DNA of 64,000 bases from NCBI GenBank assembly GCA_035546615.1, contig DASZWM010000002.1:1-64000 (forward strand). Direction: 5' to 3'. A program made the position numbers and the translations under genes. The notes beneath the pieces are model-generated. The model ran no database searches. It was given only the letters and a program-made list of their open reading frames with translations, and was not told the DNA's origin. The stretch comes from Minisyncoccota bacterium. Lineage in GTDB: Bacteria > Patescibacteriota > Minisyncoccia > Phycocordibacterales > SBAW01. This document shows positions 39,607-39,760 of this stretch, piece after piece (position 1 is the stretch's first letter; each line of letters starts with the position of its first letter).

Positions 39607-39760
39607 ACAGACGACAGTAAAATCCCGCTTGAGCGGGATTTTCTGCGCTGTGCGGGGCGCAGCCATGTCCCGCACTGGCGGGACGGCGAGCCGGGGTCGC
39701 GAAACTATTTCGCGACGGCGAAATAGTATTTGTGACCACAAAGTGCGAGACGCTTTTTTG
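39607..39760 (+). repeat. tRNA-Lys trailer element (family A, copy 1), includes terminator hairpin 39618..39641
   Basis: AAAATCCCGC-ttga-GCGGGATTTT terminator, then CTGCGCTGTGCGGGGCGCAGCCATG, hairpin TCCCGC-actg-GCGGGA, GGCGAGCCGGGGTCGCG, hairpin GTCGCGAAA-cta-TTTCGCGAC, GGCGAAATAGTATTTGTGACCAC. Confidence 0.45.

Follow-up and report, generated by a model that had tools for sequence, protein, structure and literature searches.

Putative base-pair-guided insertion elements at the 3′ ends of tRNA and other conserved genes in Patescibacteria

What kind of sequence follows the tRNA-Lys gene in a 64,000-nt stretch of Minisyncoccota DNA (positions 1 to 64,000 of contig DASZWM010000002.1; hereafter, the window)? 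A sequence-only reading had drawn attention to structured trailers behind several tRNA genes of the window, including the one behind tRNA-Lys, and had offered a tRNA-linked RNA, a miniature mobile element and a terminator-plus-promoter cassette as candidate explanations. Here, we propose that these trailers are probably copies of a non-autonomous, protein-less insertion element that is directed to specific sites by base pairing. The element is approximately 130–250 nt long, contains no open reading frame (ORF) and lies on the strand of its host gene, within 30–110 nt of the gene's 3′ end. We infer its mobility from the comparative anatomy of the copies.

Copies, gene-end repeats and the insertion site

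A covariance model (R1) built from related copies was used to search the window and recovered five intact copies, located behind tRNA-Trp, -Lys, -Val, -Tyr and -Cys (Table 1), the first four with E values of 1e-24 to 1e-19. The homology previously proposed for the Lys, Trp, Val and Tyr trailers was thus borne out (71–89 bits), with alignment of the trailers marking Lys, Trp and Val as clearly homologous and Tyr as a more distant relative. The Cys copy had escaped the sequence-only reading; it was found by a repeat scan (repeat D5) as a minus-strand region homologous to the Tyr trailer, and it converges on the Lys copy. The Phe trailer, which had been described as a weaker relative, is not recognised by the model (sixth-best hit in the window, 16 bits (15.8), overlapping the tRNA) and is better described as a degenerate remnant: its guide, GCTTGGGGCCAGGAT (5249–5263), is perfectly complementary to the 3′ part of tRNA-Phe (5210–5224, 15 nt), while its core has collapsed to GGGGTCGGAAATATTTGA. 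Together with a degenerate copy at tRNA-Leu(caa), this brings the number of tRNA genes with the element or its remains to 7 of the 13 in the window (five intact copies plus Phe and Leu-caa).

On the host gene's sense strand, the parts of a copy are, from 5′ to 3′, a replacement gene end, one or two hairpins of variable make-up (in many copies the first resembles a terminator), a guide and a core formed by helices P2 and P3. As the replacement end is carried by the element, the host gene stays intact. P3 terminates exactly at the right junction. Beyond it lies the displaced gene end, a direct repeat whose first 6–8 nt pair with the guide to form helix P1 and close a three-way junction. In many tRNA copies, this repeat comprises the 18–28 nt from C56 in the T-loop onwards and lies immediately past the conserved GUGAC; overall, the length of the gene-end repeat varies from 5 to 80 nt. 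Identity between the upstream gene end (copy 1) and the downstream one (copy 2) forms a continuous range from 5/20 to 20/20 positions and, judged on this measure, the insertions are of many ages.

Within tRNA genes, the targets are the T-loop (55|56) and the acceptor end (71|72). The same core, with guides matched to the genes concerned, is also found at tmRNA, at the coding 3′ ends of topA, rplL and rpsI and at a gene for a small membrane protein (Table 1); the copies at tmRNA, topA, rplL and rpsI contradict the idea of a purely tRNA-specific trailer RNA. In topA, the upstream copy comprises approximately 78 nt plus the stop codon, and both copies are in frame and separated by many synonymous differences, including a Ser codon changed from AGT to TCT; some of the downstream copies have decayed, having lost a zinc-finger Cys or the stop codon. 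Given the shared frame, the synonymous divergence and the downstream decay, the upstream copy looks like a replacement end borne by the element, and the one downstream would be the original end, now displaced. In four T-loop copies (L007, L103, L116 and L153), CCA is encoded by the downstream tRNA end alone, and the reverse was never seen.

The insertion sites share the motif G-N-N|C, with G at position −3 in 55/55 sites (24/24 outside T-loops), C at +1 in 52/55 and R at positions −4 and −5. The 3′ ends of the elements also read G-N-N| (GUG-AC, CUG-AC or GGG-CC), so both junctions are of the same form; the NN dinucleotide is paired with J1/2 at the left junction and with the 5′ strand of P3 at the right junction. 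Elements of different core families (A, B and C) form tandem stacks at a single tRNA (L091, L108, L016, L043, L054 and L234), and one cargo variant (L149, segment 8891–10336, plus strand) has 1.1 kb placed after the replacement tRNA end and ahead of the guide and core. The cargo of L149 encodes a 271-aa secreted protein of unknown family. At L144 (segment 2947–4118, plus strand), a 183-aa ORF is flanked by two identical elements in a cassette-like arrangement.

Guide pairing and the fold of the core

The 5′ strand of P1, which we term the guide, is the complement of host-gene sequence on either side of the insertion point. Guides are 9–20 nt long and span the 2 nt left of the junction and the first 6–18 nt to its right, as exemplified by the T-loop guide GGAGAATCGAA against TTCGATTCTCC. 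The guides of the window's Lys, Trp and Val copies, CTGTGCG, TTGCGGG and TGGTGCG, complement positions 70–73 and the first trailer nucleotides, with the junction at 71|72; for Lys, the guide complement and the repeat place the left junction between G39605 (position 71) and C39606 (position 72). That the 'GTGCGG' block complements the tRNA end had gone unnoticed in the sequence-only reading, as had the direct repeat of the gene end. An 11-nt complement of the guide (0–2 mismatches) lies just upstream in 35/46 copies, compared to approximately 7/46 when guides were swapped. Furthermore, the dinucleotide left of the junction, itself outside the repeat, complements the first two nucleotides of J1/2 at 12/12 T-loop sites and 10/10 other sites, and this trans-junction complementarity involves six different dinucleotides (permutation P < 1e-4).

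The guide is a better match to the functional copy upstream than to the one downstream, in which identity is 0.75 over positions 1–8 and 0.37 over positions 9–20. As the first 6–8 nt of the downstream copy are conserved, P1 is maintained. Many T-loop copies possess a distal second guide (segA), complementary to the acceptor 3′ strand, and a hairpin of conserved shape separates the distal from the proximal guide.

The consensus of 75 structurally aligned sequences (alignment A2) is a three-way junction of helices P1, P2 and P3. P1 is made up of the variable 5′ strand and the first nucleotides past the conserved GUGAC. P2 comprises GRC/GYC, an internal loop GSA/GA, GC, a 2-nt bulge and a variable stem-loop, while P3 comprises GUCGC/GUGAC, including an invariant G-U pair, followed by a long, variable stem, which contains a bulged A as well as tandem G-A or U-A pairs and has the invariant loop CGACGG at its tip. 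J1/2 consists of three nucleotides and J2/3 of GGG, whereas at J3/1, P3 abuts P1 without a linker. Paired cells make up 89.4 % of the alignment as opposed to 71.5 % in column shuffles, and 507 cells were changed on both sides as opposed to 161 in the shuffles (0/500 shuffles as high); with the 3′ partner slid by 1–3 columns as a control, 30–44 % were paired. Covariation was strong in each of P1, P2 and P3.

At P2a, 52 of the 75 sequences have GGC/GCC and 21 have GAC/GUC, with two exceptions; the family-B copies of the window have GCC/GGC. The core families covary at the helix bases, with family B carrying the signature GCCGGAGC..GAGGCAGGGUCGUG..CUGAC (this family includes the window Tyr and Cys copies) and family C the signature GGGGCC..GUGGGCC. 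G-U pairs outnumber A-C pairs (175 vs 52), sense-strand fold z-scores range from −4 to −5 and minimum free energies are −54, −48 and −40 kcal/mol for the sense strand vs −42, −35 and −27 kcal/mol for the antisense strand. The sense strand thus folds better, and the element folds on the same strand as its host gene; either RNA or single-stranded DNA (ssDNA) could form the G-U pairs and tandem G-A motifs. There are approximately 35 near-invariant nucleotides, concentrated in junctions and loops.

Much of the structure proposed from the window alone is recovered in this alignment. Every sequence block that had been quoted is present, the hairpins hp1 and hp2 covary as described and the functional-type covariation that had been named as the test of the proposal is strong; the description as a structured RNA with covariation is correct, and a terminator-like first hairpin is plausible. 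The '16-nt core' is a real sequence, although it corresponds to the P2 3′ strand, GGG and the P3 5′ strand. The proposed third hairpin (GTCGC/GCGAC) was unsupported, as was a pseudoknot of the same segments. Rather, GUCGC is partnered by the terminal GUGAC, and the inner stem flanks the invariant CGACGG loop. Two further candidates were rejected: a small ORF in the core (frame M..ASRGRE..RR..ICD, open in three window copies), as its ATG is not conserved in the family and variation in the helices is compensatory, and a tRNA-like RNA with an acceptor stem formed by segA and copy 2, which was dismissed as a selected structure because copy 2 decays past nucleotide 8.

Distribution, gene neighbourhood and features of the window

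A pattern scan (CGAGYCGGGGTCGC-N8-14-GCGACGG) of one genome per species returned at least 118 loci. Among the matches listed, approximately two-thirds came from Patescibacteria and several independent metagenome-assembled genomes (MAGs) of Elusimicrobia, and the Patescibacteria and Elusimicrobia loci had model scores of 60–112 bits. Host taxa are the labels given in the titles of the sequence records; those of the Patescibacteria carriers read Saccharibacteria, Kaiser-, Adler-, Nomura-, Lloyd-, Yonath-, Taylor- and Moranii-bacteria, Paceibacteria and Minisyncoccia. The covariance model returned at least 98 hits in 79 Patescibacteria/Elusimicrobia loci, including further diverged copies at those loci, and 61 additional copies on metagenome contigs were characterised by regular-expression and guide analysis. 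Pattern matches in Actinomycetota and other phyla scored 24 bits or less and were judged to be due to chance. The family is frequent and phylogenetically broad: given that several independent Elusimicrobia MAGs carry copies, it extends beyond Patescibacteria, unless the bins are contaminated. The Elusimicrobia-labelled MAGs (L045, L056, L075, L102, L103, L107 and L115) have high-scoring copies with a GC-rich P3 variant.

No true copies were found in viral contigs, phage records or plasmid records. A search of the window and 17 loci against Rfam 15, at gathering and permissive thresholds (to E = 10), returned nothing over the core; matches at gathering score were limited to tRNA, tmRNA and rRNA. 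A literature search that included the consensus text did not find the element described, and the family appears to be undescribed. A paper on group I introns in Patescibacteria tRNA genes treats anticodon-loop introns, which are a different thing from the element (PMC13011429). A match to LOOT RNA (RF03000, 51.9 bits) was obtained on a Lloydbacteria contig (L098, 5621–5752), at a place that does not adjoin the element.

The neighbourhood of the element was analysed at 72 copies, whose 621 surrounding ORFs were clustered. Only housekeeping families emerged, no protein recurred beside the element at these 72 loci and no integrase was found in approximately 160 loci. Pfam searches of approximately 50 window ORFs revealed no recombinase, transposase, HUH protein or reverse transcriptase, and ten Pfam-negative ORFs returned nothing relevant from NCBIfam. 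The scanned window ORFs are housekeeping in nature, with TsaD, MiaA, IF-2, RbfA, FtsZ/A, GyrA, TopA, ClpB, RelA, ParB and DprA among them.

Table 1. Element copies and their parts in the window, followed by targets other than tRNA genes
Feature	Position or loci	Strand	Description	Basis
Trp model hit	49820-49929	+	89 bits	
Lys model hit	39639-39748	+	87 bits	
Val model hit	10914-11024	-	85.5 bits	
Tyr model hit	47421-47535	-	71 bits	
Cys model hit	39765-39879	-	66 bits	
tRNA-Lys(ctt)	39535..39607	+	host gene of the flagged copy	ARAGORN, Rfam
Lys element	39606..39736	+	131 nt, acceptor-end type	model hit, motif coordinates, fold z-score -5.0
Lys replacement end	39606-39610	+	CACAG	motif coordinates
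Lys hairpin	39619-39642	+	terminator-like	motif coordinates
Lys guide	39648-39654	+	CTGTG + CG, complement of CG|CACAG	motif coordinates
Lys P2	39656-39692	+		motif coordinates
Lys GGG	39693-39695	+		motif coordinates
Lys P3	39696-39736	+	terminal GUGAC	motif coordinates
Lys copy 2	39737..39747	+	displaced original end, CACAAAGTGCG	
Cys element	39777..39946	-	170 nt, T-loop type, core family B (GCCGGAGC..GAGGCAGGGUCGUG..CCUGAU)	repeat D5, model hit
Cys replacement end	39928-39946	-		
Cys segA-like segment	39895-39906	-		
Cys hp1	39880-39894	-		
Cys guide	39864-39876	-	GTCGGGAATCG + CA	11-nt complement CGGGAATCGCA
Cys copy 2	39760-39776	-	decayed	
Trp element	49788..49917	+	130 nt, acceptor-end type	model hit, motif coordinates
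Trp hairpin	49800-49823	+		
Trp guide	49829-49835	+	TTGCG + GG, complement of CC|CGCAA	
Trp core	49836-49917	+		
Val element	10927..11056	-	130 nt, acceptor-end type	model hit, motif coordinates
Val hairpin	11021-11044	-		
Val guide	11009-11015	-	TGGTG + CG, complement of CG|CACCA	
Val core	11008 down to 10927	-		
Tyr element	47433..47629	-	197 nt, T-loop type, core family B	model hit, motif coordinates
Tyr replacement end	47611-47629	-	CGAATCCTCCCCGGCGCAC	
Tyr hairpin	47574-47603	-		
Tyr segA-like segment	47553-47567	-		
Tyr hp1	47534-47552	-		
Tyr guide	47520-47532	-	GTGAGGATTCG + CA	
Tyr core	47519 down to 47433	-		
Tyr copy 2	47414..47432	-	CGATTCCTCCCCGGCGCAC, identical to copy 1 at 18/19 positions	
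Phe remnant	5227..5287	+	degenerate	15-nt perfect complement; model only 15.8 bits
Leu(caa) copy	~52414..52578	-	diverged or minimal; order: long hairpin, segA, hp1, guide, AAAGAC, short P2, short P3	guide and layout shared with other copies
Leu(caa) guide	52468-52479	-	GGGAGAATCGAA	
Leu(caa) short P3	52414-52427	-	GGCTACGTGGTAGC	
Leu(caa) copy 2	52400-52413	-	CGATTCCCCCCGCC	
tmRNA target	L113, L039, L019, L067, L154, L172			
topA target	L090, L092, L052, L023, L177		coding 3′ end	
rplL target	L077, L156		coding 3′ end	
rpsI target	L199		coding 3′ end	
Small membrane protein target	L094, L064, L191		terminal MMGSSQ	

In the Lys copy, the pairing of copy 2 with the guide is now limited to CACA, and at the Tyr locus, the original terminator lies beyond copy 2 (47384–47400). 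The Trp element overlaps the miaA ORF (49907–50800, minus strand), which terminates within it: the stop codon (49907–49909, minus strand) is inside the 3′ strand of P3, and the last codons of MiaA (..GHK) and the stop are read from the complement of that strand, TTATTTGTGAC (49907–49917). The insertion may therefore have reshaped the C-terminus of MiaA. The start codon of tsaD (10915) is located 11 nt past the GUGAC of the Val element, and tsaD is directly downstream of an element in three other genomes (L040, L028 and L062), where the host tRNA is Glu or Ser. On the other side, a 281-aa ORF (11093–11938, minus strand) adjoins tRNA-Val and overlaps the 5′ part of the tRNA; it has a weak, sub-threshold match to a Sleeping-Beauty-type helix-turn-helix domain (E = 6e-4) and no match in NCBIfam, and may be spurious or mis-started.

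Three further features of the window were recorded. A 30-nt palindromic AT-rich sequence, TCATTTTAGCTTTTTGCAAAAAGCTAAAAT, unrelated to the element, is present at 10504–10533 and 30633–30662, its arms being 97 % complementary (repeats I3 and I18). Two adjoining ORFs at 3–2968 contain repeated units of approximately 680–700 nt (repeat families D1, D3, D7 and D9), with the larger ORF encoding three Laminin_G_3 (concanavalin-like) domains. Finally, a homologue of the GcrA family of cell-cycle regulators (62543–63070) is located beside DprA (63124–63984) in a genome that otherwise appears to be of Patescibacteria type.

Mechanism, alternatives and known systems

We propose that the folded single strand, as RNA or as ssDNA of the same sense, would act in cis as a recombination module that holds the two ends of the element side by side. 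A target would be chosen when its homologous strand takes the place of the 5′ end of the element on the guide, and exchange would then occur at G-N-N|C. It would be catalysed by an enzyme of the host or of a helper that acts in trans or, with lower probability, by the RNA. The element would spread mainly by homing into the same conserved gene of other genomes. It is possible, although somewhat doubtful, that junction and guide represent a new minimal programmable recombination module, in which a folded strand of approximately 100 nt picks a G-N-N|C site by means of 9–20-nt pairing. Such a module would use a small unlinked enzyme, a ubiquitous host enzyme or its own catalysis, with no dedicated co-encoded transposase.

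Several observations weigh against guided insertion. No catalyst was found in the element neighbourhoods or among the scanned window ORFs. No empty site, excised form or strain polymorphism came to light, a metagenome scan aimed at an empty Tyr locus was negative and an exact-protein look-up of RbfA for presence or absence in close relatives returned one short contig. In some young copies, the repeats run 3–12 nt past the tRNA into locus-specific flank, which is not easily explained by a carried replacement end, and the seed alignment was gathered by a fixed pattern, meaning that some of its invariant columns are forced. Moreover, segA of old copies still complements the functional gene end, even where copy 2 has decayed. 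This points to ongoing selection in the resident state, which is unlike a dead insertion and would be explicable by a host-level RNA function; it leaves room for a host-level or cis role of the RNA and makes a resident functional RNA the main rival.

Such an RNA would be a structured 3′ trailer that serves the host, co-transcribed with the tRNA and acting in cis or trans on its 3′ half, possibly in the control of processing, folding or stability or as a small RNA or sponge released by RNase Z, with the repeats as by-products of its origin. The strand of the copies and their proximity to the gene end, the maintenance of P1 with the downstream repeat, the persistence of distal guide complementarity to the functional tRNA end in old copies, the high conservation of junction nucleotides across phyla and the presence of a copy at 7/13 window tRNAs are all in keeping with it. 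We nevertheless regard it as unlikely, given that topA, rplL and rpsI have the same core at their coding 3′ ends, in each case with a guide that fits the gene concerned, that different core families occur in tandem at one site, that gene-end duplications range from perfect to decayed and that several copies lie behind terminator-like hairpins with U-runs. The 3′ ends of tRNA and tmRNA genes and T-loops are classic integrase targets, and a replacement end with a direct repeat is a classic attachment-site (att) signature; the copies match both, and could be relics of conventional integrase-mediated islands, in the manner of CIME-like att remnants. Alternatively, they could have spread passively by natural transformation and homologous recombination, with the conserved gene and the repeat serving as arms and the hairpins merely masking the internal repeat; DprA is encoded in the window, and the elements would be small enough for uptake. 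This pair of explanations seems improbable to us in view of the constant and tiny size, the lack of an integrase in approximately 160 loci and a G-U-supported single-strand fold that is not a property of a duplex att site, while the invariant G at −3 and the C at +1 across unrelated targets, together with the 2 nt of complementarity across the junction, imply that exchange takes place at a set point and not just wherever there is homology.

The three-way junction could also be an intron-like ribozyme that cuts and joins at the G-N-N| of both junctions and thereby removes the element from the transcript, its guide pairing with the upstream or downstream copy, with re-insertion at the RNA level and fixation in DNA by a reverse transcriptase. 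Its topology is that of the hammerhead, in which the 5′ strand of helix I is followed by a junction, helix II, a second junction, helix III, the site and the 3′ strand of helix I. In addition, G-N-N| with a paired NN is common to both junctions of the element, precise removal would be in frame (topA copy 2 keeps the ORF) and the near-invariant nucleotides are at junctions and loops. However, Rfam ribozyme families were unmatched even at E = 10, copy 2 has decayed in many copies, indicating that splicing is not required, and no reverse transcriptase was seen in the 72 loci or the scanned window ORFs. The reported absence of group II introns from Patescibacteria also counts against a ribozyme (PMC13011429), and we consider that there is little chance of this explanation being correct. 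The terminator-plus-promoter cassette for a downstream gene, which the sequence-only reading had preferred, would account for the terminator-like first hairpin and for tsaD directly after the Val copy, as also seen in L040 and L028. Yet three of the five intact copies in the window have a gene or another element running towards them (Lys and Cys each other, Trp miaA) and only Val precedes a gene, the cores contain no promoter-like sites and neither covarying helices nor a target-matched guide have a role in a promoter, leaving this explanation highly improbable.

The evidence therefore favours another of the original candidates, i.e. a miniature tRNA-targeting mobile element with att-like cores, now in the more specific form of a guided insertion element. 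Should this be confirmed, no smaller mobile element with its own base-pairing guide would be known, and this would be the first of the guide-bearing kind to have no recombinase encoded with it. It would account for a conspicuous feature that has so far gone unannotated in Patescibacteria genomes and that affects approximately half of the tRNA genes in the window, and it would mark recombination hot spots at the tRNA T-loop and acceptor end, at tmRNA and at the 3′ ends of topA, rplL and rpsI. The G-N-N|C site, the 9–20-nt guide and the two nucleotides across the junction provide a rule set for experiment and, possibly, for programmable insertion, while annotation pipelines would have to take into account that the 3′ ends of targeted genes can be element-borne replacements.

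Among known systems, IS110/IS1111 elements (bridge RNA/seekRNA) resemble the element in that an internal structured non-coding RNA sets the insertion site by pairing and matches the element end, and in their conserved insertion sequences and reprogrammable recognition. However, the DEDD (RuvC-like) transposase is absent from the element, the 72 loci and the scanned window ORFs; the element folds into one three-way junction and has a single guide on the 5′ side, which a hairpin interrupts in some cases, instead of two internal binding loops, and its own internal loops (GSA/GA, tandem G-A) are invariant rather than programmable. Its site is G-N-N|C with no CT core, and it has a replacement gene end and an 18–80-nt repeat. 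IS200/IS605 elements and the ORF-less palindrome-associated transposable elements (PATEs) are likewise strand-specific, with single-strand folding being essential; the cleavage sites at IS200/IS605 ends are set by short internal guides beside hairpins, and non-autonomous copies are mobilised in trans. The guides of the element are 9–20 nt of Watson–Crick pairing rather than 4–5 nt, and its target lies mostly right of the right end, whereas theirs lies left of the left end. In addition, the element has a gene-end duplication (an 18–80-nt repeat), ends that are joined in one three-way junction and left-end hairpins unconserved in sequence, and no Y1 transposase was seen. A DDE-type miniature inverted-repeat transposable element (MITE) would have terminal inverted repeats, which the element lacks, and the repeat found here is a homologous gene end of variable length (5–80 nt) with synonymous divergence, as opposed to a fill-in duplication.

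Integron cassettes share the folded single-strand site (attC), helices that span the cassette junction, tandem units and occasional cargo (as in L149 and L144), but the element consensus has no R/L boxes or GTTRRRY, there is no attI, no IntI-like ORF was found at the 72 loci and the attachment sites are the 3′ ends of many essential genes, each with a variable guide. Integrative elements and their integrase-less derivatives, the cis-mobilizable elements (CIMEs), insert into the T-loop or the 3′ ends of tRNA and tmRNA genes or into other gene 3′ ends, with a replacement end and flanking direct repeat, as found here, and accrete in tandem. The element differs in its length of 130–250 nt, its conserved core with RNA-like covariation and its site-complementary guide; no integrase was found in approximately 160 loci or in the window, although one encoded elsewhere in the genome could act in trans. 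The guide sequence of group I introns and the HDV-like (hepatitis delta virus-like) ribozyme at the 5′ end of R2 also contain an internal sequence that pairs with the host across the junction at a helix end. The element is far smaller and has no G-binding core, omega-G or U-G wobble at the site, and it has no HDV-like nested pseudoknot. It ends in C, has a core of approximately 90 nt and returned no Rfam match to group I or group II introns or to small self-cleaving ribozymes (hammerhead, twister, pistol, hatchet, HDV-like and hairpin), and its junctions (AAR, GGG and GSA/GA) are distinct from CUGAUGA/GAAA and similar motifs. As it lacks the defining enzyme, fold, core motif or duplication type of each of these families, we assign it to none of them. 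By analogy, the element would behave like other guide-directed mobile systems, namely the bridge RNA of IS110, the cis guides of IS200/IS605 and the guide sequences of introns.

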